Assembly (NCBI GenBank): GCA_031423495.1
Contig: JANPFP010000001.1
Coordinates: forward strand, 32,030-96,029
Reading direction: 5' to 3'
DNA from: Acidobacteriota bacterium
Lineage (GTDB): Bacteria; Acidobacteriota; Blastocatellia; RBC074
Length of the DNA stretch: 64,000 nucleotides
The notes below the pieces were generated by a model. It saw nothing but the letters and a program-made list of their open reading frames with translations, was not told the origin of the DNA and searched no databases. Numbering within the stretch: the first letter of the stretch is position 1; every line of letters starts with the position of its first letter. Below, in pieces: positions 2,660 through 20,168 of the stretch. A program made the position numbers and the translations under genes.

Positions 2660-3589
2660 ATGATTCAACTCAAACGTATTTTGTATCCAACTACTGCCTC
2701 GGCGACCGCGTTGCAAGACGGTGATGAAGCCTTGCATTACGCCATCGCGTTGGCGCGTGCTTATGGCGCGGAGTTGTTGCTCTGCCATTGCGTAGAGGCT
2801 ATGCCAATGGTCGCCGACGTAGGTTGGATGACCGCGCGGCAAGATACGCAAATGGCAGCGCGGTTGCGGGGCCTATTGCCTGCGAGTGATGTGCCTGCGA
2901 TCAAAGTGTTGCCCGCAATTAAAGTCTTGATTGAAGACGGCGATCCTGCGACGGAAATCCCGCGCCTCGCCGCCGAACATAACGTTGACTTGATCGTGAT
3001 GCGTTCGCGGCGGCGTCCGCGCGCGGCGGCGTTGTTAGGCTCGACGGCTGAGGCTGTGTGCCGCACTGCGCCTTGCCCGGTGTTGGTCACGCACGCAGAG
3101 GAACACGATTGGGTTAAGCCGCACGACGACACCATCGCGTTGCATCGCATCCTGGTGGCGCATGATTTTTCGAACGATGCGGAGTTGGCGTTTAACTACG
3201 GCATGCTGTTAGCACAGGAATATCAGGCCGAATTGCATTTGTTGCACGTGCTGCCTTTCGCGGCTGTGCCCAGCATGACGACGATTCCCGAAAGCCAAGC
3301 AAACGCGATGCATCAGGCCGCGCGGCGTTTGCAATCCGCCGTACCCGCCGAAACTTACCTGTGGTGCGAAGTCAAACATGCCATCCGCAACGGGCAGCCT
3401 TACCGCGAAATTTTGAGTTACGCCGAAGAGCAAAAAATTGACTTGATCTGTTTGGGCGTACACGGCGCGGGCTTTGCGATGCGCGCGTTGTTCGGCTCGA
3501 ACGCCGACCGCGTCTTGCGGCAAGCGCCATGTCCCGTGCTGATCGCACGTCCGCTGAAACCATTCATCAAAACCGGAGAAACATCATGA
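2660..3589 (+). CDS. universal stress protein, tandem UspA domains
   Basis: two Usp modules (..LLLCHCVE.. and ..LICLGVHGAGF..RVLRQAPCPVLIARP); 309 aa. Confidence 0.85.
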   Translation: MIQLKRILYPTTASATALQDGDEALHYAIALARAYGAELLLCHCVEAMPMVADVGWMTARQDTQMAARLRGLLPASDVPAIKVLPAIKVLIEDGDPATEIPRLAAEHNVDLIVMRSRRRPRAAALLGSTAEAVCRTAPCPVLVTHAEEHDWVKPHDDTIALHRILVAHDFSNDAELAFNYGMLLAQEYQAELHLLHVLPFAAVPSMTTIPESQANAMHQAARRLQSAVPAETYLWCEVKHAIRNGQPYREILSYAEEQKIDLICLGVHGAGFAMRALFGSNADRVLRQAPCPVLIARPLKPFIKTGETS

Positions 3590-4047
3590 AAATCTTACTG
3601 GCCGTTGACGGCTCAGATTACAGCAAGTTTGCCGTTGAGTCGGTCGCCGCGCGTCCGTGGCCGCCCGACAGCGAAGTGAAAGTGCTGTCGGCGATTGAAA
3701 TTCCCTTCACGCCGACGCCTGAAACCTGGTCGCTGCCTGACAGCTATTACGCGCAGATGGAAAAGAACGCGCGCGAAAGCGCCGTGCAAGCGACGCAGGA
3801 AGCCGCTGATCGTTTAGCGCAAAACAGTCCGTCGCAACTGCGCGTCAGCACGGCAACGGAATTGGGTCGCGCGCGCGACGTGATTCTCGACACGGCGGAA
3901 AAGTGGGACGCCGATCTGATTGTGATGGGTTCGCACGGATACAGCGCGATCAAACGCTTCATGCTCGGCTCGGTTTCGCACGTCGTGGCAACCCACGCCC
4001 ACTGTTCGGTCGAGATCGTACGCGAGCGAAAGGCAGCCCAATCATGA
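3587..4047 (+). CDS. universal stress protein, single domain
   Basis: MKILLAVDGSDYSKFAVE...IVMGSHGYSAIKRFMLGSVSHVVATHAHCSVEIVR; ATG overlaps the upstream stop. Confidence 0.85.
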
Positions 4048-4481
4048 TTTCAGAACTAGGCGAAAACGAAGCCCGTGCGTTGTTGCAACGCGGCACGCTG
4101 GGACGGCTGGGCGTATGCGAACCCATCCCCGATGACGAACACCACCGGCCTTACGTCGTACCGGTGAGTTATTGGTACGACGACAACTCGGTCTATGTGC
4201 ATTCGTTGAAGGGCCGCAAGGTTCGCGCGTTGCGCGCCAATCCGCACGCCTGTTTGCAAGTAGACGAAATCGAAAGCCCCTACGTCTGGCGCAGCGCACT
4301 GGCGTCCGTCCTTTATGAAGAAGTCACTGACGCCGCTGAACGCGACCGCATATTGTCGGAGTTATTCAAACGGCTGCCGCACCTGACGCCGGTCGAATCG
4401 CGCATGACCAAAGGGTTGGACGAAACCATCGTCTTTCGGTTGCGCCTGACCAGCGTCACTGGCGTCTTTGAAAAGTGGTAA
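4044..4481 (+). CDS. pyridoxamine 5'-phosphate oxidase-like FMN-binding family protein
   Basis: N-terminal EARALLQRGTLGRLGV motif typical of the PNPOx-like split-barrel family; ATGA overlap with upstream USP. Confidence 0.65.
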   Translation: MISELGENEARALLQRGTLGRLGVCEPIPDDEHHRPYVVPVSYWYDDNSVYVHSLKGRKVRALRANPHACLQVDEIESPYVWRSALASVLYEEVTDAAERDRILSELFKRLPHLTPVESRMTKGLDETIVFRLRLTSVTGVFEKW

Positions 4482-4494
4482 CAATCACCAAAAC

Positions 4495-5959: not shown

Positions 5960-6039
5960 AGAGCGCGCATGTAGTCCCGCCTTCCAGGCGGAATGTCTCG
6001 CGCATCAAACCCTTCCGGCTGAAGCCGGTACTACGAACT

Positions 6040-8721
6040 ATGCACGTCATGATCAACCAACAACCTTACGAATTCGCCGACGGCCTCACCGTCTTGCAAG
6101 CCTTGCGCGCCGTTCACTTGGACGTGCCTACGCTTTGCCACGATGAGCGTTTGCAACCGTGCGGCGAGTGTCGAATGTGCCTCGTTGAAATCACGCAACA
6201 CGGGCAAATGCGATTTGCTACGGCGTGCAATACGCCACTCGCCGATGGCATGCAGTTTGCGACGCATACCGCTGCCCTAGAAGACGAGCGTCGCTCTTTA
6301 CTCGCTATGTTGGCTAGTGGTTATCAGACGGAAGTCATAAACCGCTTTCCAGCCAAGCCGTTGCATCAACTGTTTCGGCAATACGATTTGCTCGAGGCGT
6401 GTTACGGCGCGGCGGATGAATCGTTGCGCGACGTGTCGCATCCATACATCACCGTGGATATGGCGCGTTGCATTGATTGTTATCGTTGCGTACGTATCTG
6501 TGACGAAGTGCAGGGCCAATTCGTGTGGGAGATTTTGAATCGCGGCGCTGAGACGCGCATTGCGCCAAGCAATAAAGACGGCACGGCGGCGAACCTGCTG
6601 GCGAGCGCCTGTGTGAGTTGCGGCGCGTGCGTTGACACCTGCCCCAGCGGCGCGCTCGAAGATCAATCCGTCATCGCGTTCGGCGCGGCTACGCAATGGA
6701 CGAAGACGACTTGTCCATATTGCGGCACGGGCTGCGAAATGAACGTCGGCACAAAAGATGACCGCATCGTGCAGATCACGCCTGCGCACGAAGCCCCCGT
6801 CAACAAAGGCCATCTGTGCGTCAAAGGACGTTACGCCTATGAATTTGTTTACGCCGACGACCGCGTCACTTCGCCGATGATTCGTGAAAACAACGAATGG
6901 CGGCGCGTCTCTTGGGACGAAGCGATTCAATTCACCGCCACCCGCTTGCAACAAATCGTCAACGCCCACGGGGCTGACAGCGTAGGCATGCTCGGTTCGG
7001 CGCGCGCAACGAATGAGGAAAACTATCTCACGCAAAAATTCGCCCGCGTCGCGCTTGGCACCAACAACGTAGATTGTTGCGCCCGCGTCTGCCACGCGCC
7101 TACCGCCGCCGCGATGAAACTCACTTTAGGCACAGGCGCGGCGACGAATTCATACGACGACATCGAACGCGCGCATACGATTTTGTTGTGCGGCACGAAC
7201 GCTACAGAAAATCATCCGATCATCGGCGCGCGCATCAAACAGGCTGTCATCAAAGGCGCAAAGCTGATTGTGATTGATCCGCGCCGCATCGAAATGGCTG
7301 ATTACGCCGACGTGCATCTGGCGTTGCGTCCGGGTACGAACGTGCCGCTGCTCAACGCACTCGCCTGCGCCATCATCGAAGAAAAACTCTATGACGAAGC
7401 TTTCATCAGCGAGCGCGTCAGCGACTGGGAAGCCTTTCAAACCTTCATCAAACAGTTCACGCCCGAAAGCGTAGCCGACCTTTGCGGCGTCATCGCCGAA
7501 GCGATTCGCCAAGCCGCGCGGCTCTACGCAACCGGCCAGCCGAGCATGTGTTTGCACGGTTTGGGCATGACCGAACACACGCAAGGCACCGAAGGCGTGA
7601 TGGCACTCGTCAATCTCGCGCTGCTCACCGGCAACCTCGGCAAGCCCGGCGCGGGAGTCAATCCGCTGCGCGGACAAAACAACGTGCAAGGTTCCGCGCA
7701 CATGGGCTGCGAACCAAACAATCTCACAGGCTTTGTTTCGTTAGCTGACGGACGCGCGTTGTTTGAAAGCGTCTGGCAATCCGCCTTGCCAACGACGCAA
7801 GGTTTGAACCTGATGCAGATGATGGATGCAGCAGCGGCAGGCAAGCTCAAGGCGCTCTGGGCGATTGGTTACGACATCCTGCTGACCAACGCGAATACGC
7901 ACGAGACGCGGCGCGCGCTCGACAACCTCGAACTCGTCATCGTGCAGGATATGTTTTTGAACGAGACCGCGCGCGAGTTCGGTACGGTCTTTCTGCCCGC
8001 CGCTTCGTCGTTTGAAAAAGACGGTACGTTTATGAACGCCGAACGCCGCGTGCAGCGCGTACGCAGCTCAATCGCGCCGCGCGGCGAAAGCAAAAGCGAC
8101 TGGCAAATCATTTGCGACTTGGCGCGCGCGCTAGGCCACGGCGCGCAATTCGCTTTTCAATCCGCTGAAGAAATCTGGAACGAAGTTCGTCAGGTGTGGC
8201 CCGCCGGGCGCGGTATCAGTTACGCGCGCATCGAGACGGCGGGCTTACAATGGCCTTGCCCCGACGAAAGCCACGCGGGTACGCAACTCTTGCACGCCAC
8301 GACCTTCCCCATCGGCAAGCAAGCCGCGTTGCGACGAATTGATTATCGCGCTACGCCTGAAACCGTATCAGACGAATTTCCTTTCCTGCTCACGACCGGA
8401 CGTACGCTGCATCAGTTCAACGCAGGCACGATGACGATGCGCACGAAAAACGCGGTGCTGCGTCCGGCTGATACGCTCGACATCGCGCCCGCCGATGCCG
8501 AACGCCTGCAACTGCCCGACGGCGCGCGCGTCCGCGTGATCAGCCGCCACGGTGAAACTGTGATGGCGCTCAAGCATGACGATGCGGTTAAGGCGGGTGA
8601 GTTGTTTGTTACGTTTCACACGGCGGAGGTGTTTTTGAATCACGTGACGAGTCCGCACCGCGATGGGTATGTTGGTGCGCCGGAATACAAGGTGACGGCG
8701 GTGCGGATTGAGCGGATTTGA
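6040..8721 (+). CDS. formate dehydrogenase alpha subunit-like molybdopterin oxidoreductase with fused N-terminal 2Fe-2S and 4Fe-4S ferredoxin domains (Cys-type, not Sec)
   Basis: N-terminal CHDERLQPCGECRMC (2Fe-2S), CxxCxxC clusters, MopB Fe4S4 TKTTCPYCGTGCEM, GHLCVKGR, ARVCHAPT at the FdhF selenocysteine position, 893 aa. Confidence 0.8.
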   Translation: MHVMINQQPYEFADGLTVLQALRAVHLDVPTLCHDERLQPCGECRMCLVEITQHGQMRFATACNTPLADGMQFATHTAALEDERRSLLAMLASGYQTEVINRFPAKPLHQLFRQYDLLEACYGAADESLRDVSHPYITVDMARCIDCYRCVRICDEVQGQFVWEILNRGAETRIAPSNKDGTAANLLASACVSCGACVDTCPSGALEDQSVIAFGAATQWTKTTCPYCGTGCEMNVGTKDDRIVQITPAHEAPVNKGHLCVKGRYAYEFVYADDRVTSPMIRENNEWRRVSWDEAIQFTATRLQQIVNAHGADSVGMLGSARATNEENYLTQKFARVALGTNNVDCCARVCHAPTAAAMKLTLGTGAATNSYDDIERAHTILLCGTNATENHPIIGARIKQAVIKGAKLIVIDPRRIEMADYADVHLALRPGTNVPLLNALACAIIEEKLYDEAFISERVSDWEAFQTFIKQFTPESVADLCGVIAEAIRQAARLYATGQPSMCLHGLGMTEHTQGTEGVMALVNLALLTGNLGKPGAGVNPLRGQNNVQGSAHMGCEPNNLTGFVSLADGRALFESVWQSALPTTQGLNLMQMMDAAAAGKLKALWAIGYDILLTNANTHETRRALDNLELVIVQDMFLNETAREFGTVFLPAASSFEKDGTFMNAERRVQRVRSSIAPRGESKSDWQIICDLARALGHGAQFAFQSAEEIWNEVRQVWPAGRGISYARIETAGLQWPCPDESHAGTQLLHATTFPIGKQAALRRIDYRATPETVSDEFPFLLTTGRTLHQFNAGTMTMRTKNAVLRPADTLDIAPADAERLQLPDGARVRVISRHGETVMALKHDDAVKAGELFVTFHTAEVFLNHVTSPHRDGYVGAPEYKVTAVRIERI

Positions 8722-8781
8722 AATCGGGCGTTGTTGAGAAAGCGCGCTCAGGGTTATGATTCAGGGCAAGGAGGAATGCTA

Positions 8782-9033
8782 ATGAATGGAACGATCACTT
8801 TACCGATTGACGCAGAATTGGCCGGCTGGCTTACCACGGGAGCGGCGACACGAGGCGTCAGGGTTGAAGAATTCGCCGTAGACACCTTACGCCGCGTTGC
8901 CAAAAAGCCGACTATCAACGAAGTCTTCGCCGACGTGCAAGCCGATTTCAAAGCGAGCGGAATGACCGAAGATGAGTTGGGCGATTTGCTGGAAAAAGCC
9001 GTTGCCGAAGTGAGAGCGAGCAACCGTGACTGA
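8782..9033 (+). CDS. putative antitoxin partner of PIN toxin (small acidic protein)
   Basis: 83 aa; RBS ggagga; its stop overlaps the GTG start of the downstream PIN gene (gtgactga). Confidence 0.5.
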   Translation: MNGTITLPIDAELAGWLTTGAATRGVRVEEFAVDTLRRVAKKPTINEVFADVQADFKASGMTEDELGDLLEKAVAEVRASNRD

Positions 9034-9499
9034 AAAATATCTGGTGGTGTTCGACACGGTGGCTTTGGTGCAGCGCGTAATCGCTCCCGAAGGAAACGCC
9101 GCCAAATGCTTTGCTTATTTTGAAGAAGGAGTAATCGCCGTCGCCGTCAGTCACGCCACACTCAAGGAACTCAAAGACGTGCTTTCACGCTCCTACATCC
9201 GCGACAGGTTTCCGCACATCACCGATGCAATTGTTACTTGGCTAACCGATTTATTGCTTGAAGAAGGCGAGTACCGGCGAAACGTACTCAGACATTTCAC
9301 CTACCCGCGCGACCCCAAAGACGAACCGCCCATTAACCTCGCTATCGAAGTCAATGCTCATTACCTCATCAGCCGTGATAAAGACTTGCTTGATTTGATG
9401 AACTGGAACAAACCGGATGGCCGTGAGTTTCAGCGCCGCTTTCGGTTTCTAAAAATCGTCAAGCCGGAAGAATTCTTGCAAGTAATGGAAGGCAATTGA
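9026..9499 (+). CDS. putative toxin-antitoxin system toxin component, PIN family
   Basis: 157 aa; LVVFDTVALVQ...ISRDKDLLDL acidic PIN-like residues; 8-nt overlap with upstream small gene. Confidence 0.65.
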   Translation: MTEKYLVVFDTVALVQRVIAPEGNAAKCFAYFEEGVIAVAVSHATLKELKDVLSRSYIRDRFPHITDAIVTWLTDLLLEEGEYRRNVLRHFTYPRDPKDEPPINLAIEVNAHYLISRDKDLLDLMNWNKPDGREFQRRFRFLKIVKPEEFLQVMEGN

Positions 9500-9502
9500 A
9501 CC

Positions 9503-9589
9503 GCGTAACAAGTCCGCAATGTGACGGCTACGTCGGCGCACCGAAATACAAAGTCACAGCCGTCCAGTTCGAACGCCTCGCCGGATAAA
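9503..9589 (+). other. degenerate duplicate of the fdh 3' end (encodes RVTSPQCDGYVGAPKYKVTAVQFERLAG* versus fdh C-terminus HVTSPHRDGYVGAPEYKVTAVRIERI*)
   Basis: direct comparison of 9503-9589 with 8641-8721; ~75% nt identity; flanks the TA cassette. Confidence 0.6.
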
Positions 9590-9708
9590 GGTCTGCCTGA
9601 GCGAAGAATAAAGGCTCTGCCTGAGCGAAATCGCGCATACAAAACAACACAACTGGGGAACCTTGCGCGGCTGACGGCGCAAAACCGACTTATCGCCATT
9701 TATCCGGG

Positions 9709-9725
9709 CTGGCACGAGGCTTGCC
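9709..9725 (+). promoter_or_regulatory. candidate sigma-54 promoter cTGGCACGaggcTTGCc upstream of Hsp20
   Basis: near-perfect match to TGGCACG-N4-TTGC; ~63 nt upstream of the ATG at 9787. Confidence 0.6.
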
Positions 9726-9786
9726 AATCTCAGAGGTACGCCATCAAACGGTTGGCGCAACTTTAACCCGAAAGGAAATTCGTTTT

Positions 9787-10338
9787 ATGCAAGCCCAAAC
9801 AGCGCTGGAAAAGAAACCGGCAACTAACGCAACTAGCCCCTTCTTTGTCGAAGCCGAGAAGCTCCTGGAAGAGATGAAGGAGGTTTCCCAATCCGTAGCC
9901 AAACGTGCTTACGAATTGTTTGATACGCGAGGCCGCGAACTGGGCCACGAACTCGAAGACTGGTTCCGCGCGGAATTTGAAGTCTTACGCTGGGTGCCCG
10001 TCGAGTTGAAAGAAGCGGACGGCAAATTCGTCGTGCGTGCCGAAGTGCCCGGCTTCAACGCCGCCGACCTCAAGATCAGCGTCGAACCCAAACAACTCAC
10101 CATCAGCGGCAAGAAAGAAGAGACGAAGGAAGAACCAAAAGAAGGGCCAAAAGAAGGAAAAGACGCGAATCGCTACTTCTCAGAATTTCGCGCGAATCAA
10201 TTCTGCCGCACGCTGAACCTGCCCAAAGCGGTGGATACGACACAGGCGCAGGCCGCGCTCAAAGATGGTGTACTCGAATTGACGTTGCCGAAAGCAGCGG
10301 TGAGTGAACCGGTCAACGTCTCCGTCAAACCCAATTAA
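9787..10338 (+). CDS. Hsp20/alpha-crystallin family small heat shock protein
   Basis: alpha-crystallin domain ([37 protein letters not shown]...GVLELTLPK). Confidence 0.85.
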
Positions 10339-10428
10339 CCGAAGCGTGTGCGAAAGAATTCTGCTTGTGCTGTAAAGACAGCGTTCGCGCACGGCGCAGA
10401 ATGAACACATCCCCCAAAACCAACTGTC

Positions 10429-10824
10429 ATGAAAAAACCAATTGAGTACGGTTACAGCAAAACGATTGATATCAGTTACCGGCAAGCCATCGAACGCACC
10501 AAAGAGGCGCTGCAACAGGAAGGTTTCGGCGTGCTGTTCGAGTTGGATTTGCAGGAAAAGCTGCGCGAAAAGCTCGGCGTCGAGCTTCGGCCTTACGTGA
10601 TTTTAGGCGCGTGCAATCCGGCGATGGCTTATCAGACGTTGCAGGCTGAAATTGACATCGGCCTGCTGTTGCCGTGCAACGTGATCGTTTATGAACAGGA
10701 CGGCCAGTCGGTCGTCGCGGCGATTGATGCGGCGAAAATGATGACCGTCGTCGGCAATCCGCAATTGGCCGCCACTGCCGCGCAAGTGAATGAAAAGCTG
10801 CGGCGCGCGATTGACAGTTTGTAA
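10429..10824 (+). CDS. DUF302 domain protein
   Basis: [45 protein letters not shown]... typical DUF302. Confidence 0.7.
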
Positions 10825-10845
10825 AAGCAGAAAAGGAGCAAACGT

Positions 10846-10935
10846 TATGTCTGACTTTCTTTGGATGATTTTGTTTTTCGTAGCTTATTTTGCGCTGATG
10901 CGCTGGGTGTTGCCGCGTTTCGGCGTGGCTACCTG
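10846..10935 (+). CDS. candidate 29-aa hydrophobic peptide ([29 protein letters not shown]), below the track cutoff
   Basis: RBS aaaggag 7 nt upstream of ATG; single predicted TM helix; may be non-coding. Confidence 0.3.
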
Positions 10936-11013
10936 AATGGCTCCGTCGTGTCGCGTCGAGGATCGGCGCAAAGAACCGCAATCAAACAGCAACCTTACTC
11001 ACGGAGAGCAGCA

Positions 11014-11688
11014 ATGAAAAAAGTACTGTTGAGTTTATTCGTGCTGAACGCACTTGCATTCACGGCGCTGGCGCAAGGGCGTGGCCCCAGCCCCAGAATG
11101 ATGGGCGGCATGCAGCAAAAAGACATGGACACGATCCATACCCTGTTTGCCAACCGCAAGAAAATCAAACGCACGGTTACGCCGATTAAACACGGCGTGG
11201 AAACCGTGACCGAGGGTGAAGACGAGGCTACGCGCAAGCTGATCGCCGAACACGTTGCGGCCATGAAAACGCGGCTGGAAAAGAAACAACCGATTCGCAT
11301 GTGGGATCCGCTGTTTGCCGAACTCTTCAAGCACGCCGACAAGATCAAGCTGGAAATTTTGCCCACCGCGAAAGGCGTCAAGGTTGTTGAGACTTCTGAC
11401 GACCCGTACGTCGTGAAGCTGATTCAGGCGCACGCGCAAGGCGTTTCTGAATTCGTCAAAGAAGGCATGCCGAGCATGCACAAGCGCCACGAACTACCCG
11501 GCGCTGATCCATCTGTCGAAAAGTTTCTCGGCAAGGGCGATGGCGTTACGACCTGTCCGGTTACCGGCGAGCCGGTGAATAAGAACATCAGCGCGGTGAT
11601 CGGCAAGCGCACGGTGTATTTCTGCTGTCAGAGTTGCGCGGATGCCGTGAAAAAAGACCCGGCGCTTTATCTCAAAGACTATCAATAA
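11014..11688 (+). CDS. secreted protein with C-terminal YHS/TRASH-type metal-binding domain
   Basis: signal peptide [22 protein letters not shown]; C-terminal TCPVTGEPV...[16 protein letters not shown]. Confidence 0.6.
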
Positions 11689-11701
11689 GGAGCGAAAAAC
11701 C

Positions 11702-11899
11702 ATGACTGTCGAACAAGCATTGCGATTGATTGCGGGCGCTCTCGTGTTAGCCAGCATCGCGCTGGGCTATTACGTCAGCCCTTATTTTTTTCTGTTCACC
11801 GCGTTCATCAGCTTGAACCTGATGCAATCGGCGTTTACGAATTGGTGCCCGATGATGACGCTGTTGCGCAAGGCGGGCTTACGCGACTTACAGGCGTGA
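11702..11899 (+). CDS. DUF2892 (YgaP-like) small membrane protein
   Basis: 65 aa; LRLIAGALVLASIALGYY...FTNWCP motif. Confidence 0.6.
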   Translation: MTVEQALRLIAGALVLASIALGYYVSPYFFLFTAFISLNLMQSAFTNWCPMMTLLRKAGLRDLQA

Positions 11900-11908
11900 G
11901 AGGCTTTC

Positions 11909-13264
11909 ATGTTGAATCGAGCTTTTGCACACACGCTGGCGTTGCTGCTCGCGGTTAGCCACTCGGCCTTCGCGCAAACCGCCGTTGAGCCGCTGACCTT
12001 GCCGCTGGCCGTAGAGATTGCGCTCAAAACCAATCCGCTCACGCGCGCTACCGAAGCAGGCCGTGCGATGGCCGATGCGCAAGTCAGCGAAGCCAAAGCC
12101 GCGCGCTTCCCGCTGTTGCAGGTGAGCGAGAATTTCGCCGCGAGCAACAATCCGGTTTTCGTGTTCGGTTCGTTGCTCGAACAAGCGCGCTTTGCGCAAA
12201 AGAATTTTGATCTGCGCGCGTTGAACAATCCAGCGACGATGAGCAACTTTCGCAGTTCAGTGAATTTCAAACTGCCGCTTTTCGATCAGCGGCAAACCGC
12301 CACGCGCATCAATCGCGCGCAATTCGGTCAACAACAAGCCGACGCGCAAACCAACCTGGTCGCGCAACAGATTCGCTTTGAAACGCTGAAAGCCTTTTAT
12401 GGCGTGCTGCTCGCGCAAGCCCATCAGGAAGTCGCCGACGAAGCCGTCAAGCTCGCCGCAGCCGATGTCAAACGCAGCCGCGACCGCGTCGAAACCGGTC
12501 TCGCCGTCGTCTCAGACCTGCTCGCCGCCGAAGTCCAACTCGCCGAAGCTACGCAACAACAGATTCAAGCCGCTGGCGAAATCGTCATCGCGCGCGCCGC
12601 GCTCAACACCGCGCTCGGCCTGCCCATCAACGCACCGCAAACCATCAACGGAGCTTTGCTCGAAAAAGATTTCGACCTTGCCGAACAGGATGAATTGTTG
12701 CGCCTCGCGCTCGCACACCGTTCTGATTTGTCACGCGCGCAATTACAGGTGCGTTCAAATCAAGAACAGATGCGCGGCACGCGCAGCGAGTGGTTGCCGC
12801 GTCTCGACGTATTCACCAGTGCGGGCGTGAGCAGTCAGGCTTTCAACAACGGCAGCGCAGATTACCTGGTCGGAGCGAGTGTGACGTTCAATCTGTTTGA
12901 CGCCGGACGCAAAGCACGGCTGCAACAGGCGCGCGCGGGGGAAGCGCTGGTCGTCGCCGAACAGCAGCATCTGACGAATCAAATTCGGTTTGAAGTCGTG
13001 CGCGCGCAACAGCAATTCATCAGCGCCCGCGCGCGTTTGAACGTCGCCGGACGCGCCGTCACGCAAGCGACCGAGGCGTTGCGCATCGTGCAGGATCGTT
13101 ATCTCGAAGGCTTGACCACGATCACCGAACTCTTGCGCGCCGAAACCGCTTTGACCCAAACGCGCATGAGTCTCGTCGCGGCGCGTTATGAGCATTACGT
13201 AGGTTACGCCCAAGTGTTGCTGTCGTGCGGCAGGCTGAACGACGTGCAGGTGTTCGTTTCATAA
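11909..13264 (+). CDS. TolC-family outer membrane efflux protein
   Basis: signal peptide, two repeated coiled-coil/beta modules, 451 aa, upstream of MFP and RND genes. Confidence 0.85.
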   Translation: MLNRAFAHTLALLLAVSHSAFAQTAVEPLTLPLAVEIALKTNPLTRATEAGRAMADAQVSEAKAARFPLLQVSENFAASNNPVFVFGSLLEQARFAQKNFDLRALNNPATMSNFRSSVNFKLPLFDQRQTATRINRAQFGQQQADAQTNLVAQQIRFETLKAFYGVLLAQAHQEVADEAVKLAAADVKRSRDRVETGLAVVSDLLAAEVQLAEATQQQIQAAGEIVIARAALNTALGLPINAPQTINGALLEKDFDLAEQDELLRLALAHRSDLSRAQLQVRSNQEQMRGTRSEWLPRLDVFTSAGVSSQAFNNGSADYLVGASVTFNLFDAGRKARLQQARAGEALVVAEQQHLTNQIRFEVVRAQQQFISARARLNVAGRAVTQATEALRIVQDRYLEGLTTITELLRAETALTQTRMSLVAARYEHYVGYAQVLLSCGRLNDVQVFVS

Positions 13265-13273
13265 GAGGTTCAG

Positions 13274-14455
13274 ATGAAGATACTCATTTCCTTTTTTGCC
13301 CTTGCGTTGCTGGCGACATCGTGCGCCAAGCGGCAGCAAGTCGCCGCCGAACAACCCGCCATCGTCAAAAACGTCCCCACCGAAACTATCAAACTGGTTG
13401 CCACGGACGATTATTACGAAGCCGTCGGCACGGTGCGCTCAAAAACCACGACGACGCTTTCGGCCAAGATCGTAGGCACGATCACCGCCGTCCGCGTGAG
13501 CGCAGGCGACCGGGTGCGCGCAGGGCAACCGCTGATCCAAATCGAAAACCGCGATGCGCGCGCGCAAGTCGAACGCGCTGAAGCTGGCTTGCGCACAGCC
13601 CAAACCGCCACCGAAGAAGTCGAGAAAAACATTCGCGTCGCCGCCGCCGCGCAAGCTGCTGCCGAGGCGCAACGCCAATTGGCTGAAAGTACGTTGAAAC
13701 GCTATCAGGCTTTGCTGGAGCGCAAGTCGGTTAGTCCGCAGGAATTCGACGAGACGCAAACGCGCTTCAAAGTCGCCGCCGCCGAAGTCGAACGCGCCGA
13801 ACGCATGTTGCAAGCAGCGCAAGCGCGGCGCGCCGTGGTGCTAGCGGGCATCGAACAAGCCAAATCCGAGGTTGCCGCCGCGCAAGTGATGGCGAGTTAC
13901 GCGCGCATCGTCGCGCCCATCAACGGCGTCGTCACCGCCAAACAAGCTGAAGCCGGTTCGATGGCCGCGCCGGGTACGCCACTGCTCACGCTCGAAGACG
14001 GCGCGAGCTATCGCCTCGAAGCCGCCGTCGAAGAATCGCGCATCCGCAACTTGCGCTTAAACGCGCAAGCTCTGGTCATCATTGACGCGCTGGGCGGCGC
14101 TGAGTTGAACGGCCACGTCGTCGAAATCGTACCCGTCGCCGATCCCGCCAGCCGCAGCTACATCGTTAAGATTGCTTTGCCGCCGCATCGTTTCCTGCGT
14201 TCGGGGCTGTTCGGCAAAGCGCGTTTCAGCGCGGGGCAAAAACAGATGATCGCCGTTCCGAATCAGGCGATTGTGCAGCGCGGCCAACTCACGGGCGTTT
14301 ATGTCGTAGATCAAAACAGCTTCGCGCGCTTGCGCCTCATCTCGCTCGGCAAAGCGCACGGCTCAATGACCGATGTGTTGTCAGGCTTGAACGACGGCGA
14401 ACGCATCGTGACCAGCGCCGCCCTCATTCCGCGCGAAGGAGTGAAAGTGCAATGA
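13274..14455 (+). CDS. efflux RND transporter periplasmic adaptor subunit (MFP)
   Basis: lipoprotein-like N-terminus, long coiled coil, beta-barrel domain; ATGA overlap with RND gene. Confidence 0.85.
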
Positions 14456-17400
14456 GAGAGATAGGGTTCGCAGGCAAACTCGCGCGTGCTTTCATCAATT
14501 CAAAACTCACACCGCTGGTGATTGTGGCTTCGGTGTTGCTCGGTCTCGGTGCGGTCGCGTTGCTGCCGCGCGAAGAAGAGCCGCAAATCATCGTGCCGAT
14601 GATTGACGTATTCGTTGAAATGCCCGGCGCTTCAGTCAAAGAAATCGAAGAGCGCGTTGCCAAGCCGATGGAAAAGTTGCTGTGGGAAGTGCCCGGCGTC
14701 GAGTATTTGTATTCGACTTCGTCGCCCGGTCAGGCAATGGTGATCGTGCGGTTTCTGGTGGGGCAAAACGAAGAAGACGCCATCGTGCGGCTGAATCAAA
14801 AGTTGCTGGCGAATTTCGATTTGATTCCGCCCGGCGCATCGCCGCCGCTGATCAAGCCGCGTTCGATTGATGATGTGCCGATTCTGGCTTTGACGTTGGC
14901 GAGCGAACGTTACGACGGTTTCACGCTGCGCCGCATCGCCGCACAGCTTCACGATCAAATCAAAGAGATCAACGACGTATCCGAAATCAAACTCATCGGC
15001 GGACAGCGCCGCCAATTGCGCGTCACGCTCGATGAAGCGCGGCTGACGGCTTTCAACCTCGCTCCGGCGGCGCTGGCGCCGTTGCTCGAACAGGCCAATC
15101 GGCAATTGCCATCCGGCAGCTTCGCCACCGGCAACCGCGAGTACCTGGTGGAAACCGGCGGGTTCTTGCGCAATGCCGATGAAATCGCCGCCGTCGTCAT
15201 TGGCGTATTCAACGGCAAGCCCGTCTATTTACGTGACGTGGCGAAAATAGAAGACGGCGCGGAAGAGCCTGCCGATTACGTGATGTTCGGCGTCGGGCAA
15301 CACGTGAAAGAATCTTCCACTCCGCACTCCACACTCCGCACTCCGCGTTCGGTTTTGCCCGCCGTCACGCTTTCCATCGCCAAGCGCAAAGGTACGAACG
15401 CGATTGCGATTGCCGAAAAAGTTTTAGAGAAAGTCGAACGCCTCAAAGGCACGTTGATTCCCGCCGATGTCGCGGTGCATACGACGCGCAATTACGGCGA
15501 GACGGCGAGCGAGAAATCGAATGAGTTGCTGTTGCACATGCTCATCGCCATCTTCTCGGTTGCGGCGTTGATCTGGCTCACGCTCGGCCGGCGCGAATCG
15601 GGCATTGTGGCGACGGCGATTCCCGTGACGCTCGCGCTGACACTGGCGGTCTTTTATTTGTATGGCTACACGCTCAATCGCATCACCCTGTTCGCGCTGA
15701 TCTTTTCCATCGGCATTCTCGTGGACGACGCCATCGTCGTCGTCGAAAACATGGCGCGGCATTACCGTCTGCCTGAAAACAAAGGGCGCGCGCTGATTGA
15801 CATCGCGGTCGAGGCCGTTGACGAAGTCGGCAATCCGACGATTCTGGCTACGTTTGCCGTGATCGCGGCGATTCTGCCGATGGCTTTCGTGGGCGGATTG
15901 ATGGGGCCTTATATGAAACCCATCCCGATTGGCGCAACGGCGGCGATGGTCTTTTCGTTGTTGGTCGCTTTCATCGTTACGCCGTGGGCGAGCTTGCGTT
16001 TGCTCAAACGCGACGACAGGCATGGAGATGAGCAGGAAGGGCGAATGACAAAACTCTATCGCGTAGTGATGGGCAAACTCATTCGCGTGCCGGCGTGGCG
16101 TTATGGCTTTTTGCTCGGCGTCGTCCTGCTGTTGTTCGCTTCCCTGGCGCTGGTCGGATTGAAACTCGTGCGCGTCAAGATGCTGCCTTTCGACAACAAG
16201 AGCGAGTTCCAAATCATCGTAGACATGCCCGAAGGCACGCCGCTCGAACAAACCGCCGCCGTCACGCGCGAGATTGGCGAAACGATCAGCGCCGTGCCCG
16301 AAGTCACCGATTACCAGATGTATGTGGGCACGGCGTCGCCTTATAACTTCAACGGACTGGTGCGGCATTACTTCATGCGGCGCGGCGCGAACGTTGCCGA
16401 CCTGCAAGTCAACCTCGTCGGCAAAGGCGAACGCGACGCGCAAAGCCACGACATCGCCAAACGAGTGCGCCCCTCAATTCAAATGATTGCGCAGCGATAC
16501 AACGCGCGCGTGAAAATCGCCGAAGTCCCACCCGGTCCGCCCGTCTTGCAAACGCTGGTCGCTGAAATTTACGGCCCCGATTACGCGCGGCAACTCGCCA
16601 TCGCGCGGCAGATACGCGATGTGTTCGACAACACCGAGGGCGTAGTTGATGTGGATTCATACGCCGAAGACGATCAGCCGAAATATCAATTCATCGTGGA
16701 TAAAGAGAAAGCCGCGCTCAACGGCGTCACGGCTGAACAGGTCGCGGCAACCTTGCGCATCGCGGTCGCGGGGCTGTCGGTCGGCCTCGTGCATCAGCCA
16801 CAGGAAAAAGAAGACGTGCCCATTGTGTTGCAACTCGCACGCGCCGAACGTTCGAGCCTGAACGATCTGAAACAAATCAAAGTGCAGGGACGCAACGGCA
16901 ACCTCGTGGCGCTCGGCGAGTTGGCGCGGGTCGAAGAGCAAATCGCAGAGAAAAGCATTTACCACAAAAACCTGATGCCGGTGACTTATGTGACCGCCGA
17001 CATCGCGGGCAGCGAAGAAAGCCCGGTTTACGCGATTCTCAAACTCAACGAAGCGATAGATCAGCTCAAGCTGCCGGAAGGTTACGCGCTTGAACGTTAT
17101 GTCGCGTCGCTGCCGTTTAGCAGCGACAAATACGCGATGAAATGGGACGGCGAATGGCACATCACTTACGAGGTCTTCCGCGATCTGGGCCTGGCCTTCG
17201 CGGCGGTGCTGGTATTGATTTACATCCTCGTCGTCGGCTGGTTCCAGTCGTTCAAAACGCCGCTGGCGATTATGGCGGCGATTCCGTTTTCGCTCGTAGG
17301 CATCCTGCCCGCGCACGGATTGATGAACGCCTTTTTCACGGCGACTTCGATGATCGGCTTCATCGCGGGCGCGGGCATCGTCGTGCGCAATTCAATCATT

Positions 17401-17709
17401 CTCGTAGATTTCATTGAACTCAGATTGAAAGAAGGCATGCCGCTCGCCGAAGCCGTGATTGACGCAGGCGCAGTGCGCTTTCGCCCGATGATGCTGACGG
17501 CGGCGGCGGTCGTGGTCGGAGCCATCGTGATTTTGTTCGACCCGATCTTTCAAGGGTTGGCGATTTCACTGATGGCGGGCGAAATCGCTTCGCTGTTGCT
17601 GTCGCGCATGACCGTGCCGATTCTTTACTACCTGAGCGAACGAAAAAAACACCAAGCCGCAACGCACGACGACGTGATGCCAGTCGTGGCTTTGGGGCAA
17701 ACACATTGA
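14452..17709 (+). CDS. efflux RND transporter permease subunit (AcrB-like HAE1 signature)
   Basis: 1085 aa, 12-TM layout, TM4 motif [16 protein letters not shown]. Confidence 0.9.
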
Positions 17710-17726
17710 GCAGGAGCTTTGCATTT

Positions 17727-18176
17727 ATGAACGAACAACTTCCCTATTTTTATGACACGACCGTTGAATGGACGAACGCGCGACAAGGCACGTTGAGCGC
17801 GCCTGAGTTGACTTCGCTAACCATCGCAGCGCCGCCTGAATTCAAAGGCCACGCGGGGCTGTGGACGCCCGAACATCTTTTCGTCGCGTCGGTCAATGCG
17901 TGCTTTATGACTACGTTTCTGGCAATTGCGGAGTTGTCGAAACTCGAATTCGTCAGCTTCACCTGCAGCGCGCAAGGAAAGCTGGAAAAGGCCGAATCGC
18001 ATGGCTTCAAAATCACTGAAGTCGTGCTGCATCCGAAACTTGTCATCCGTCACGCGCACGACCTTGCGCGAGCCGAACGAGTTTTGGGAAAGACCGAACG
18101 CAACTGCCTCATCTCTAATTCAATCCATACGGTCGTCAGGCTTGAATCCGAAATTAGCTTAGCACCTGCCAGCTAA
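17727..18176 (+). CDS. OsmC/Ohr family peroxiredoxin-like protein
   Basis: GLWTPEHLFVASVNACFMTTF and ...NCLISNS motifs of the OsmC family. Confidence 0.75.
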   Translation: MNEQLPYFYDTTVEWTNARQGTLSAPELTSLTIAAPPEFKGHAGLWTPEHLFVASVNACFMTTFLAIAELSKLEFVSFTCSAQGKLEKAESHGFKITEVVLHPKLVIRHAHDLARAERVLGKTERNCLISNSIHTVVRLESEISLAPAS

Positions 18177-19774
18177 CGGGCTTGTGCGCGCAACCAGTCA
18201 GCCGCCCGCTGCCCAATCTCGGCCAGCGCAACATTGGTGTCGAGCTTCAGTTCTTTGTCATCAGCAATAAGCATAGGCTGCGCTTCAGCGCGTTGCCGTT
18301 GATAAACCTCCCACGTCGCATCAGACGCGCCTTCGTGTTTGGCCGCACGCGCATCAAGGCGAGCGCGCACCAGTTCGGGCGCGAGTTCGCATTCGATAAG
18401 ACGAAAGGTAGCGCCGAACTCAACAGCCAACGCGCGCGCTTGCTGCCGCTCTTCGGCGCGTTGAAAGGTCGCATCGAGTATTACGCTTTGCCCGCTGGTG
18501 AGCAGTTCACGCGCTTGCTCAAAAATCGTTTGATAGGTGAGGCGGCTGGCTTCGTCTGAGTAAGCACCCGCGCCGTAGTCGCACGGCCCTTTTTCATCTT
18601 TGAACAATTCGCCGCGCACTTCGTCTGAAGAAATTACGCGCAAGCCCAATTCATCGGCCACCGCGCGTGCGACCGAAGTTTTGCCCGCACCCGAAAGCCC
18701 GCGTACGACGATGAGCGCGCGCTGTTTGAGCGGCGCGGCGTAACGTCGCGCCCAATCGAAATAATGTTTGGCGCGCGCGGCGGCGGCTTCGTGTTCGGCT
18801 TCGGTGAATTCAGTTTCGTTCAATTGAAAGCTCAACACCTTGCCGCGCACGTAAGCGCGATAGCAGCGATAGAACGGCAGCAGCGTGAAAAAGTCAGGAT
18901 CGCCACGGCGTCGTTGATAGGCTTCGACAAAATAATAACCGAGGTCGGGGCGTCCGCGCGCGGCCAAGTCCATGTCGAGAAAGGCGGCTTCGCTGGCTAC
19001 ATCGTCGCAGCGGAAGCGTTCGTTGAATTCGATGCAATCGTAAATGCAAATGTCGTGGTCGAGTACGCAAATGCTTTCGCAGCGCACGTCGCCGTGACCA
19101 TCCACAATGCGGCCTTCGCGCTGGCGGCGTTCAAACAATTCGGTATGCGTCGTGATCCAATCGTTAACCCAGGCTTTGATCGCTTCGTGGTCAGCCGCGC
19201 TGATCGTGCGTCCGATGAAAGGTTCGGCTTGCGCGAAATTCTCTTCCCAGTTGTGGCGGATTTCGTCGCGGCTGCCCCAGCGTGCGATGTCACGTCCGCG
19301 TACGGCGTTGTGATGAAACTCGGCCAGACGCGCGGCGATGCGGTCAATCATCATTTCGGTCGCTTCGTTGCGCGCTACGAGTTGGTCGAGCATGCGTTCA
19401 GTGGGCAGCCGGTTCATCCATACGCAATGATCTATGAGCTTGCCGTGGCGGCCTGAGAACGCGATCTTGCCGTCGGTTTCGACTACGCCACCGAGGCCGA
19501 TATAAGTGTCAGCGCACAAGCGGCGATTGAGGCGAATCTCGTCTTCACAGGCTTTCATCCGCTTGTCTAAAGTCGTGAAATCGAGGAAGCCGAAATTGAC
19601 CGGCTTTTTGAGTTTGACGACGCGCGTGCGGCCCAACAGTAAAACCGAAATATGCGTTTGAATCATTTCAATCGGCAATTCTTCGGGCGGCCATTCGGGC
19701 GCGTGCTTTAACTGTTCAACCTGTGCCAACCAGGTTGGCAGATCGGTTTTTTCCGCTGCGTAATTTGACGCCAT
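18173..19774 (-). CDS. bifunctional aminoglycoside phosphotransferase-like / P-loop ATP-binding protein
   Basis: N-terminal APH-like kinase fold (HGDVRCESICV..DCIEFNERFRCDD), C-terminal P-loop VVRGLSGAGKTS. Confidence 0.65.
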   Translation of the reverse strand: MASNYAAEKTDLPTWLAQVEQLKHAPEWPPEELPIEMIQTHISVLLLGRTRVVKLKKPVNFGFLDFTTLDKRMKACEDEIRLNRRLCADTYIGLGGVVETDGKIAFSGRHGKLIDHCVWMNRLPTERMLDQLVARNEATEMMIDRIAARLAEFHHNAVRGRDIARWGSRDEIRHNWEENFAQAEPFIGRTISAADHEAIKAWVNDWITTHTELFERRQREGRIVDGHGDVRCESICVLDHDICIYDCIEFNERFRCDDVASEAAFLDMDLAARGRPDLGYYFVEAYQRRRGDPDFFTLLPFYRCYRAYVRGKVLSFQLNETEFTEAEHEAAAARAKHYFDWARRYAAPLKQRALIVVRGLSGAGKTSVARAVADELGLRVISSDEVRGELFKDEKGPCDYGAGAYSDEASRLTYQTIFEQARELLTSGQSVILDATFQRAEERQQARALAVEFGATFRLIECELAPELVRARLDARAAKHEGASDATWEVYQRQRAEAQPMLIADDKELKLDTNVALAEIGQRAADWLRAQAR

Positions 19775-19822
19775 ATTGACTCACCTCTCTCACGATGCCG
19801 GGGGAAACTCCCCAACTTGCAG

Positions 19823-19838
19823 CGGCACAGTGCTTGCA
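19823..19838 (+). promoter_or_regulatory. candidate sigma-54 promoter gCGGCACagtgcTTGCA upstream of the small-protein/holin-family operon
   Basis: GG-N10-GC with TTGCA; ~69 nt upstream of the ATG at 19906. Confidence 0.5.
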
Positions 19839-20115: not shown

Positions 20116-20168
20116 ACGAGACCGCAATGACTGTGCCGCGAGACACTAAAGGTAGGAGTATTTATCCC

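Follow-up and report, generated by a model that had tools for sequence, protein, structure and literature searches.

The locus lies within a stretch of 64,000 nucleotides from an uncultured acidobacterium, which was analysed as a whole and is called the window here. It opens with fdh, a formate dehydrogenase alpha-type gene that starts at 6040 on the + strand and encodes 893 aa, including what appears to be a foreign C-terminus. The Pfam domains Fer2_4, Fer4, Molybdop_Fe4S4, Molybdopterin and Molydop_binding were found in its product. Behind fdh follow a toxin-antitoxin (TA) gene pair, a second short piece of fdh and an Hsp20 gene (9787-10338) with HSP20 and DUF2934 domains in Pfam. The features are listed below together with the evidence on which each assignment is based.

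6040..8502, + strand: native 5' part of fdh (Pfam domains; identity to the fdh of L138)
8439..8502, + strand: left, homologous junction zone (alignment of window, L138 and L135)
8503..8721, + strand: imported fdh 3' end of xenologous origin, the final 73 codons counting the stop (drop in identity to L138)
8633..8724, + strand: predicted hairpin of ~24 bp within the imported tail, with core arms at 8652-8661 and 8698-8707
8722..8781, + strand: spacer with a probable TA promoter and ribosome-binding site (blocks conserved in L005)
8782..9033, + strand: antitoxin gene, 83 aa (8-nt overlap with the toxin start; conserved partner position)
9026..9499, + strand: PIN_3 toxin gene, 157 aa (Pfam PIN_3 and TIGR00305 above cut-offs)
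9496..9500, + strand: right junction, TTGA(A) (alignment with L135 and L138)
9496..9588, + strand: displaced native fdh tail of 30 codons and stop, a pseudogene fragment (collinearity with L138 and L135)
9585..9629, + strand: 24-nt tandem duplication spanning the stop codon of the displaced tail (TRF)
9589..10338, + strand: Hsp20 gene with the native spacer before it (synteny in L138 and L135-L137)

L001 (SRR20217191) and L002 (SRR20217190), two assemblies made independently from different runs, contain the same junction sequence. The predicted hairpin is built around a 10-nt perfect inverted repeat detected by repeat search and folds with -39.2 kcal/mol (z=-2.39); 5 out of 200 shuffled sequences folded equally well, and the fdh tails of L138, L128 and L129 contain no such hairpin. 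A tandem repeat following the TA pair had already been noticed when only the sequence was read, and it is indeed present, with the period corrected from 22 bp to 24 and the extent from 9586-9637 to 9585-9629 (1.9 copies, 95% matches in TRF). Its unit is single-copy in L135 and L138, the doubling being specific to the window, and the motif has no further exact occurrence within the 64 kb. No significant Rfam family was detected at the locus.

The PIN toxin-antitoxin pair

The toxin scores well above the cut-offs of both family models, with 49.6 bits against 27 for PIN_3 (PF13470, E=8.4e-13) and 53.3 bits against 29.15 for TIGR00305 (NCBIfam). The toxin has the acidic active-site residues conserved in the PIN fold; D10, E48, D96, D99, E100, D118 and D120 are invariant among 20 homologues of 47-86% identity. 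The C-terminal EGN directly before the stop codon is natural in the family, since P0035 ends in the same way and P0020 ends in ESN. A search by sequence returned no solved structure for the toxin. The antitoxin gave no match above noise in Pfam or NCBIfam; a partner gene of 82-86 aa adjoins every close PIN homologue examined in the same position. Both genes are under purifying selection, as indicated by dN/dS values of 0.10-0.14 for the antitoxin and 0.07-0.11 for the toxin across three genomic contexts. The family scores, the invariant acidic residues and the dN/dS values suggest that the two products act as toxin and antitoxin.

The spacer in front of the pair contains the blocks GCGTTG (8727-8732), TATGAT (8755-8760) and AAGGAGG (8768-8774). 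These putative promoter and ribosome-binding blocks are kept in L005, where the same cassette follows a different gene, and a consensus promoter scan found no canonical sigma-70 site. The ends of the cassette are compact: the right junction coincides exactly with the toxin stop codon, and in two contexts the cassette starts 1-6 nt past the stop codon of the upstream gene. Such ends are not expected from random illegitimate joining; they may mark a defined boundary of the cassette or result from streamlining at a later stage.

Cassette-free relatives and the two fdh tails

We compared the locus with relatives lacking the cassette. In L138 and in L135/L136/L137 one fdh tail stands directly before the 164-nt spacer leading to Hsp20, and the TA pair is absent. 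These empty sites bear out the sequence-only reading, which had placed the entry of the cassette at the 3' end of fdh and had predicted a single fdh tail in relatives without it. In blastn, positions 444-3113 of L138 aligned with 6040-8697 of the window and positions 3051-4468 with 9496-10971 (84%). Identity of the window fdh to that of L138 is 88% overall; in bins of 30 nt it amounts to 0.83-0.97 up to 8490 (0.97 in the bins spanning 8431-8490), falls to 0.57 in bin 8491-8520 and stays within 0.57-0.80 from there on. Because identity to L138 is about 90% up to about 8500 and 57-80% beyond, the segment from about 8503 to 9499, consisting of the xenologous fdh 3' end, the 60-nt spacer, the antitoxin and the PIN_3 toxin, is by these alignments an imported one.

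The three-part structure of the locus and both of its junctions can be read directly from the alignments. On the left, a run of 62 nt with one mismatch to L138/L135 is followed by an immediate collapse of similarity, and alignment with both relatives places the break after GATGCCG(AACG), at ~8500-8506. On the right, native fdh homology starts exactly at TTGAA. The letters TTGA(A), a minimum estimate of this microhomology, are common to the stop codon of PIN (AAT TGA) and the Leu-Asn codons of native fdh (TTG AAC); immediately 5' of them stands AGGCAA (PIN) in the window and GC(C/A)TTC (fdh) in the relatives. The left breakpoint lies at about 8503, but the native copy resumes only at the equivalent of 8635. 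The intervening 132 nt of native fdh are absent, their place having been taken by the imported segment of ~1 kb.

The recurrence of the fdh tail after the TA pair was correctly recognised from the sequence, although its coordinates shift by 1-7 nt, from 8641-8721 and 9503-9589 to 8635-8715 and 9496-9576. This in-frame homology comprises 27 codons, starting with TTGAAT and TTGAAC, respectively, and is statistically supported in local searches (blastn E=5e-7; tblastx E=7e-11); other flanking direct repeats occurred at 1 of 84 sliding control positions in the window. The two tails share 20 of 27 residues and ~70% of their nucleotides. Their 24 nucleotide differences are distributed 3/2/19 over the codon positions, affecting 19 of 27 third positions and 5 of 54 first and second positions. 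Since the differences fall mostly on third positions, the tails diverged under purifying selection.

The downstream tail (translation LNRVTSPQCDGYVGAPKYKVTAVQFERLAG, stop TAA at 9586-9588) is 83% identical to the native tail of L138 and 86% to that of L135, with a third-position identity of 0.74-0.81, and it is collinear with both relatives together with the spacer and Hsp20. For the upstream tail the corresponding values are about 71-73% and 0.30-0.33, and its third-position identity to the downstream tail is 0.30. It is as far from the single tail of the relatives as are fdh genes of other genera, and its protein agrees with other fdh lineages (P0124, P0123) at every conserved position. As judged from these comparisons, the upstream tail is foreign and part of a functional gene, and the downstream tail is the native one. 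The description of the fdh tail as duplicated had to be abandoned because the single tail of the relatives is orthologous to the downstream, not the upstream, copy. The accompanying view that the displaced copy is decaying proved sound, as the downstream tail carries R->C and E->K substitutions at positions invariant in the alignment of fdh homologues.

The upstream tail also stands out in composition. In the last 54 codons of fdh 85% end in G or T, versus 44% in the remaining gene, which the downstream tail resembles. A change point in third-position composition was located at 8557 (LLR 18.9, reached by 0 of 500 permutations), ~50 nt inside the divergence breakpoint. Because of this offset, and because the TA genes do not share the third-position G/T bias of the upstream tail, the imported piece may itself be a mosaic.

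Related loci show further rearrangement. In L003/L004 the TA pair is still present, together with the foreign fdh tail contiguous with it and 16 nt of the native tail; the bodies of fdh and Hsp20 and about 10 kb have been lost. Flank identities conflict as to whether the insertion was inherited vertically or transferred between the window and L003 lineages. In addition, 17 other distinct loci of this TA family are flanked by partial copies of neighbouring gene ends. Among them are TA arrays located upstream of glyA, and one array offers a mirror-image before/after pair: L094 and L078 are 97-100% identical in their background, and the PIN-b cassette is found only in L094. There the functional glyA adjoins a foreign glyA head, which is 83-89% identical and shows its last difference at +61, and the native 33-nt glyA head is displaced to the other side of the cassette. 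This pair is an independent mirror case of the fdh locus.

Route of entry and competing explanations

The locus combines a homologous junction with a microhomology junction and a small deletion in the recipient, which is the signature of homology-facilitated illegitimate recombination (HFIR). We consider it about 75% probable that the locus arose in this way, from a donor segment of ~1 kb joined by homology on the left and by microhomology on the right. The 62-nt run immediately 5' of the breakpoint would be the anchor. Both the recombination pathway and the manner in which the DNA entered the cell are inferred. The ancestral locus would have had the order YkuD, fdh, spacer, Hsp20. The donor was probably another Blastocatellia-like lineage, in which a putative RHH-type antitoxin/PIN_3 toxin operon would have lain directly downstream of the donor's own fdh. 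A homologous crossover would have taken place in the near-identical run ending about 8502, and the right join would have used 4-5 nt of TTGA(A) shared by the PIN stop codon and fdh codons 866-867, so that the ~1 kb segment replaced 132 nt of the resident gene. Past the crossover the donor fdh tail (about 30% diverged) would have entered as 'foreign' DNA along with the TA pair because it was too diverged to pair. Such an event would leave the fdh reading frame intact with a xenologous C-terminus, the TA operon behind fdh under its own promoter, and the native last 31 codons stranded downstream, drifting as a pseudogene. Once established, the pair presumably is a standard type II module, with a PIN RNase toxin and a labile neutralising antitoxin that represses the operon, and as such would be hard to delete.

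Site-specific integration, which had been suggested from the sequence, would make the segment the remnant of a small integrative element with a surrogate fdh 3' end in its attP. Loss of the integrase and of most of the element would have come later, with the TA pair surviving by addiction. The topology is the same as that of icd, e14 and icdC (PMC13626634), where the functional gene runs on into the insert and a pseudogene of the C-terminal part is found on the far side. The tight cassette boundaries fit as well, and recombinases occur near some related loci, a large serine recombinase gene in L040 even abutting the downstream repeat copy. We nevertheless regard this origin as unlikely. The search for integrase or attachment-site signatures that had been proposed along with it returned neither: precomputed Pfam lists show no integrase or transposase in the conserved neighbourhood on either side, which encodes Usp, PNPOx, YkuD, Hsp20, DUF302, OEP and RND components, and the insert holds the fdh tail, antitoxin and toxin only. 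An identical core is missing, the tails sharing no identical run longer than 8 nt (AGTCCGCA). Recombination at att sites keeps the copy from the crossover onward, as would a Campbell-type event, whereas here the native copy begins 132 nt past the left breakpoint. Neither plasmid nor phage relatives of the cassette were detected. An integron gene cassette was rejected, taking as the mark of attC an imperfect palindrome RYYYAAC...GTTRRRY at the cassette 3' end; no inverted repeat lies downstream of PIN, where the sequence is fdh coding sequence.

Alternatively, a circular molecule of fdh tail and TA pair might have integrated by a Campbell-type single crossover, followed by deletion of the first part of the second copy. 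Direct repeats of 50 nt and 185 nt exactly delimit the cassette gain or loss by which L078 and L094 differ, and cassette arrays that each carry the same gene-end copy (L078, L094, L021) could be shuffled by repeat recombination. At the fdh locus, this origin is improbable to a still higher degree: it needs two events where one suffices, requires recombination within a segment only about 70% identical, and leaves copies of unequal length (219 nt of foreign and 93 nt of native tail). Duplication of the fdh tail in place, as a long target duplication on cassette insertion with decay of the non-functional copy, would account for two copies bracketing the cassette and for the damaging substitutions in the downstream one. 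It is refuted by the codon-position pattern given above and by the orthology of the downstream copy to the single tail of L138/L135, from which the upstream copy is distant, and retains practically no probability. Equally negligible are two tandem fdh paralogues around the TA pair, the second mostly deleted, and a chimeric assembly of two strains. The clade does show deletions next to the TA pair (L003/L004, L135), but relatives have a single fdh contiguous with Hsp20 and the downstream tail and spacer are collinear with that gene's end. The chimera is contradicted by the junction between PIN and the native tail, which recurs in the two assemblies from different runs and in part in L003/L004, two further assemblies.

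Wider meaning and relation to known systems

How chromosomal TA modules that lack mobile-element genes enter genomes is still debated. Under the HFIR reading, the fdh locus and the L094/L078 glyA pair would provide base-pair-resolved before/after evidence for integrase-free entry, with a homologous crossover inside a conserved gene next to the insert at one end and a join at a microhomology at the other. A housekeeping enzyme would thereby gain a foreign C-terminus as a by-product, and in L003/L004 the TA pair has outlasted the genes around it. We tentatively propose, as something possible rather than probable, that TA operons in Blastocatellia-type Acidobacteriota spread routinely without recombinases, taking along a copy of a conserved neighbouring gene's end that would serve in their next host as a one-sided homology arm. 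If true, each transfer would keep the host gene intact with a xenologous end and strand the native end beyond the cassette, and new cassettes would add to earlier ones rather than replace them, giving arrays such as those upstream of glyA. In that case, serial TA invasions could be read from the stranded gene ends, and if the pattern is general, these ends could serve to polarise or count horizontal TA acquisitions in uncultured bacteria.

The pair resembles type II PIN systems (VapBC-like; PF13470, TIGR00305) in its two-gene operon, where a small upstream gene overlaps that of a PIN toxin of ~157 aa, in its conserved acidic residues, in the strong purifying selection on both genes and in its many unrelated chromosomal contexts. 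It differs in that the antitoxin falls outside the curated families and the toxin has no sequence match to solved structures. Arrays of displaced gene ends are familiar from polymorphic toxins, namely the orphan C-terminal toxin-immunity modules of Rhs/CDI and the T6SS effector-immunity arrays in Vibrio, where an incoming module recombines in the conserved part of the gene and pushes the old 3' end downstream. The glyA-head arrays in L078/L094 are comparable. In the polymorphic systems the displaced end is a toxin module of the host gene itself, whereas fdh, glyA and an aldehyde dehydrogenase would be merely homology anchors for unrelated TA operons.

Prophage e14 and phage 21 at icd in E. coli extend icd into the prophage and leave the icdC pseudogene at the far end (PMC13626634). 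An insert-supplied surrogate 3' end by which the host gene stays intact, a native 3' end lying beyond as a pseudogene and mostly silent differences are common to both cases. However, e14 is a prophage of 15 kb that brings an integrase and an att core of its own, and the insert in the window measures 1 kb, without recombinase or core and with copies of unequal length. Belot et al. 2026 (PMC13617665) put forward a model of chromosomal TA acquisition and erosion, in which compact TA islets without mobile-element genes occupy high-turnover regions and spread by recombination of flanking core genes while their neighbourhood erodes; double homologous recombination in flanking genes and, at one TA locus, duplicated palindromic res-like sites are described. 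The region in the window likewise varies between relatives, but neither surrogate and displaced gene ends nor one-sided homology are described in that study.

HFIR in natural transformation (de Vries & Wackernagel 2002; Prudhomme et al. 2002; Meier & Wackernagel 2003; summarised in PMC6382021) is known from laboratory transformation of a few competent species. The anchor junction, the loss of a short stretch of recipient DNA by the anchor and the trapping of ~1 kb of foreign DNA correspond to the fdh locus, and the junction at a microhomology of a few bp probably does so too, with the difference that here they are deduced from the natural genome of an uncultured acidobacterium. A further difference is that the 'foreign' DNA would open with a diverged homologue of the same gene that provides the anchor, which would explain the apparent duplication of the fdh tail.

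The toxin–antitoxin pair and its neighbours

In the window the formate dehydrogenase gene (fdh) is followed by a toxin–antitoxin (TA) pair and then by a second sequence resembling the end of fdh. We refer to the fdh 3' end upstream of the pair, which is part of the functional gene, as tail 1 and to the copy after the toxin as tail 2.

6040-8721, fdh, molybdopterin formate dehydrogenase, 893 aa
8782-9033, antitoxin gene, 83 aa
9026-9499, toxin gene, 157 aa, overlapping the 83-aa gene by 8 nt
8635-8715 and 9496-9576, in-register homologous stretches of tail 1 and tail 2

Read in a single frame, the DNA directly 3' of the toxin stop encodes LNRVTSPQCDGYVGAPKYKVTAVQFERLAG followed by a stop codon, and the C-terminus of fdh is LNHVTSPHRDGYVGAPEYKVTAVRIERI, also up to the stop. 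The two tails share 20 of 27 residues and about 70% of nucleotides, a similarity supported by local searches (E=5e-7 with blastn, E=7e-11 with tblastx). The tail copy described in the sequence-only reading is therefore present, with coordinates that had been wrong by one to seven bases. A tandem repeat 3' of it also exists, although at 9585-9629 with a period of 24 and 1.9 copies instead of the 22 bp at 9586-9637 proposed before. Its 24-nt unit (ATAAAGGCTCTGCCTGAGCGAAGA) contains the tail 2 stop codon; alignment shows it as single-copy in two relatives lacking the cassette (L135 and L138) and duplicated in the window. Two further assemblies, built from different sequencing runs, show the same junction between PIN gene and tail.

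The 157-aa protein scores above the curated cut-offs of Pfam PIN_3 and of NCBIfam TIGR00305, which NCBIfam describes as 'putative toxin-antitoxin system toxin component, PIN family'. No curated family in Pfam or NCBIfam matched the 83-aa protein. Since the toxin ends in EGN and a stop, a natural C-terminus within the PIN family (P0035), it is not truncated. Across 20 homologues the acidic residues of the PIN domain do not vary, and dN/dS of both TA genes is 0.07-0.14 over three contexts. By every sequence criterion tested the module would be classed as an ordinary PIN_3 type II TA member.

Native and foreign fdh tails

An exact-protein look-up with the Hsp20 protein of the window gave no match. 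A homologue search with the same protein yielded relatives whose Hsp20 proteins are 90% and 84% identical to it, and these provide the empty sites. L138 carries an intact 899-aa fdh, then 164 nt, then Hsp20 and DUF302; L135, L136 and L137 share the gene order Usp-Usp-PNPOx-YkuD-fdh-Hsp20 with an internally deleted fdh. None of them has the TA pair, and all show the single fdh tail that had been expected at a site without the cassette. In blastn, L138 444-3113 corresponds to window 6040-8697 (88%) and L138 3051-4468 to window 9496-10971 (84%). Tail 2, spacer and Hsp20 of the window align collinearly with the only fdh tail, spacer and Hsp20 of the relatives, with homology beginning at TTGAA. The nearest fdh homologues in the protein database (L128-L130, 74-75% identity), each with one fdh tail and lacking the TA pair, were set aside as empty sites as too distant.

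Tail 2 is 83-86% identical to the tails of L138 and L135, with third-position identity of 0.74-0.81, whereas tail 1 reaches only about 72%, with third-position identity of 0.30-0.33. Tail 2 is therefore native and tail 1, on the functional gene, foreign; the tail duplication claimed by the sequence-only reading was not borne out. The 24 differences between the tails are distributed 3/2/19 across codon positions, which rules out neutral decay of a fresh spare copy. Third positions are only 30% identical between them, a distance as large as or larger than that seen when fdh is compared between genera of one family. Judged by this pattern, nearly all divergence of both tails must have accrued under selection as coding sequence. 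In-place duplication with decay is excluded by the codon-position pattern together with the orthology of tail 2 to the single tail of the relatives. Tandem fdh paralogues and an assembly chimera are both excluded by the synteny of the relatives and the independent assemblies. In tail 2, residues that do not vary among about 70 fdh homologues are altered (R->C and E->K), and the ratio of non-silent to silent changes in this tail against the relatives is elevated. This fits relaxed constraint since displacement, so that the suspected decay of the displaced copy did hold.

We determined the extent of the import by comparison of the fdh gene to L138 in 30-nt bins. Identity is 0.83-0.97 up to 8490 and 0.57-0.80 from there to the stop. 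By alignment the left break lies after GATGCCG(AACG), at about 8500-8506, at the end of a 62-nt run with one mismatch to both relatives. A separate measure agrees closely: the strongest single change point of third-position composition in the whole fdh is found at 8557 (LLR 18.9, matched in 0 of 500 permutations). The last 54 codons (8557-8718) are 85% G/T-ending compared to 44% before, with C3 of 0.13 and A3 of 0.02. This bias is not seen in the rest of fdh, the TA genes, Hsp20 or tail 2, the composition of which is that of the fdh body. Donor codon usage as the whole cause was considered and found incomplete, the bias starting about 50 nt inside the import and being absent from the TA genes. 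The import therefore spans about 8503-9499, comprising 73 xenologous fdh codons, a 60-nt spacer, antitoxin and toxin. The native DNA it replaced is the equivalent of 8503-8634, 132 nt. At the right junction the toxin end GGC AAT TGA meets the native fdh restart TTG AAC, with TTGA(A) common to both.

A hairpin of about 24 bp is predicted in tail 1 (8633-8724; -39.2 kcal/mol, z=-2.39), its feet falling where the tail 2 homology starts and on the stop codon of fdh. No such hairpin occurs in the fdh tails of L138, L128 and L129. The predicted structure might be an insulator or terminator before the TA promoter, or chance.

Two further observations concern the surroundings. In L135, 4802-5836 (corresponding to window 6039-6599, 7053-7185 and 8369-8717) shows two internal fdh deletions that leave 344 aa, and fdh is entirely lost from L003 and L004, two relatives that carry the TA pair. 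The gene appears dispensable and decaying in the clade, though its frame was kept when the TA pair inserted. Compared with L135 and L138, the window has additional genes downstream of Hsp20/DUF302, spanning about 10 kb (10972-20722) and including OEP as well as RND membrane-fusion and pump genes. The TA pair lies at the margin of a high-turnover region.

The cassette in other loci

Two other settings contain close homologues of the TA genes, at 94% and 88% protein identity. In L003/L004 the pair still has 200 nt of foreign fdh tail attached, as well as 16 nt of tail 2 (TTGATACGCGACAGGT), marking L003 as a deletion derivative of the junction in the window. The bodies of fdh and Hsp20 have been deleted, as have about 10 kb of efflux genes further on. 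L003 1-1310 and L004 correspond to window 4347-4493, 8524-9513, 10265-10337 and 20770 onward, the TA pair being left with stubs of its old neighbours. The pair is a survivor of deletions, consistent with TA addiction blocking those that include it. In L005/L006 the same 740-bp unit (window 8751-9488) lies behind an unrelated 514-aa membrane-protein gene (gene X). After the unit, 248 nt or more of the gene X tail recur at 87.5% identity, now with a stop codon. The L005 junction is a few nt deeper into PIN than that of the window. On these two grounds, the L003 remnant of tail 2 and the position of the L005 junction, a common fixed right end of the cassette in window, L003 and L005, suggested by blastn end points, was dropped. 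A consensus promoter scan upstream of the antitoxin returned no canonical site. GCGTTG and TATGAT blocks 5' of the antitoxin are kept between the fdh and gene X contexts, and this conservation suggests that the operon carries its own promoter.

We surveyed 87 loci of the PIN family from genome and metagenome collections for repeats between 2.5 kb upstream and 1.5 kb downstream of the PIN gene. Same-strand flanking repeats were detected in 6/40 genome loci, plus L005 and the window, and in 12/45 metagenome loci; distinct loci besides the window, L005 included, numbered 17. As a control, pseudo-cassettes were slid along the window, and 1 of 84 had a flanking repeat. A stricter control with matched flanks in the same loci gave 4/58 pseudo-cassettes versus 6/29 real cassettes, some of the control hits being neighbouring cassette arrays. 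The enrichment is real but modest. Flanking repeats were not found at four closer PIN homologues (L007, L131, L133 and L134). Readable repeats are ends of adjoining genes:

Gene ends found as flanking repeats
3' tails: fdh; gene X; 476-aa gene (L022); aldehyde dehydrogenase (L042/L080); 357-aa gene (L021)
5' heads: glyA (L033/L078/L094); 338-nt head (L103)

Third-position bias recurs in L021 (5/8/30) and in L080, where a single codon phase holds 7 of the 8 differences. L021 813-3986 contains a gene tail, MazEF, a 95-nt tail fragment, a second pair, RHH-PIN_3 and a 258-nt tail copy, and is an array built on a gene tail. Its second pair consists of a gene with RHH-antitoxin-like sequence at its start and a 138-aa gene without an assigned family. 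L108 2510-5330 carries several different TA cassettes with imperfect palindromes of about 100 nt between them (GACCGCGGAT...ATCCGCGGTC), at which the integron GTTRRRY core is absent; it is another kind of cassette array with the same PIN_3 family. At L040 (4485-6230) a 548-aa large serine recombinase gene adjoins the downstream copy of a 277-nt repeat bracketing a 2.9-kb insert that holds the TA pair. This may be a genuine integrative element.

On Pyrinomonadaceae-like contigs two or three different TA cassettes lie directly upstream of glyA (L078 2230-4545; L094 1020-3450; L033 3277-4542; L034 2806-4465). The types are Phd-Doc, MNT-HEPN and two of RHH-PIN_3, and content varies among near-identical strains: L078 has Phd-Doc, MNT-HEPN and RHH-PIN, L094 has Phd-Doc, PIN-a and PIN-b. 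Behind each cassette stands a copy of the glyA start, made up of the ribosome-binding site and 11-25 codons, whose ATG is overlapped by the toxin stop. Since their background is 97-100% identical and PIN-b is present in L094 only, L094 and L078 form a second before/after pair. The glyA head beside the functional gene in L094 is 83-89% identical over about 200 nt, with the last difference at +61, and is foreign. The native head of 33 nt is left upstream of PIN-b. This arrangement mirrors that at fdh and supports the same mechanism with one-sided homology.

Mechanism and known systems

A near-identity junction, a second junction at an apparent microhomology of a few bp, and the loss of a little recipient DNA by the anchor together match the signature of homology-facilitated illegitimate recombination (HFIR). 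The donor's own fdh tail, about 30% diverged, would start the DNA unable to pair past the conserved run. The apparent duplication would arise because this unpaired incoming DNA begins with the diverged tail. After an att-type event, by which an integrative element would have entered, or a Campbell-type event, the native copy would persist from the crossover onward, which is not seen. Such events should further leave equal-length copies or an identical core, and neither is present; nor does the conserved neighbourhood contain a recombinase. Needing an extra deletion, the att-type event is improbable, and the Campbell-type event just as much so; the site-specific integrative element suggested by the sequence-only reading found no support. 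At the cassette no integron attC or known RNA element was found, and no close relative of the TA pair on a sequenced plasmid or phage.

Several features go beyond HFIR alone. The right junction sits precisely on the toxin stop, and in two contexts the cassette begins 1-6 nt past the stop codon of the upstream gene. The late onset of the G/T3 bias, which the TA genes do not share, and the predicted hairpin in tail 1 belong here as well.

The fdh locus is now explained, its value being the mechanistic resolution, and it suggests that TA invasion may leave a footprint that can be read more generally. The fdh architecture resembles the displacement arrays formed by Rhs/CDI and T6SS toxin loci. The latest synthesis on chromosomal TA acquisition (Belot et al. 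2026, PMC13617665) proposes entry by mobile elements, streamlining and spread through homologous recombination at flanking core genes, and reports one locus with duplicated palindromic res-like sites; one-sided homology is not described there, nor are gene ends that act as surrogates or are displaced. In the literature we found no description of TA cassettes with flanking partial gene-end copies, or of TA cassettes tied to HFIR. Prophage e14 at icd/icdC (PMC13626634) is a known case of the same architecture, in which a surrogate replaces the gene end and the native end is displaced. Unlike e14, the fdh architecture would arise without a recombinase, from a 1-kb segment.
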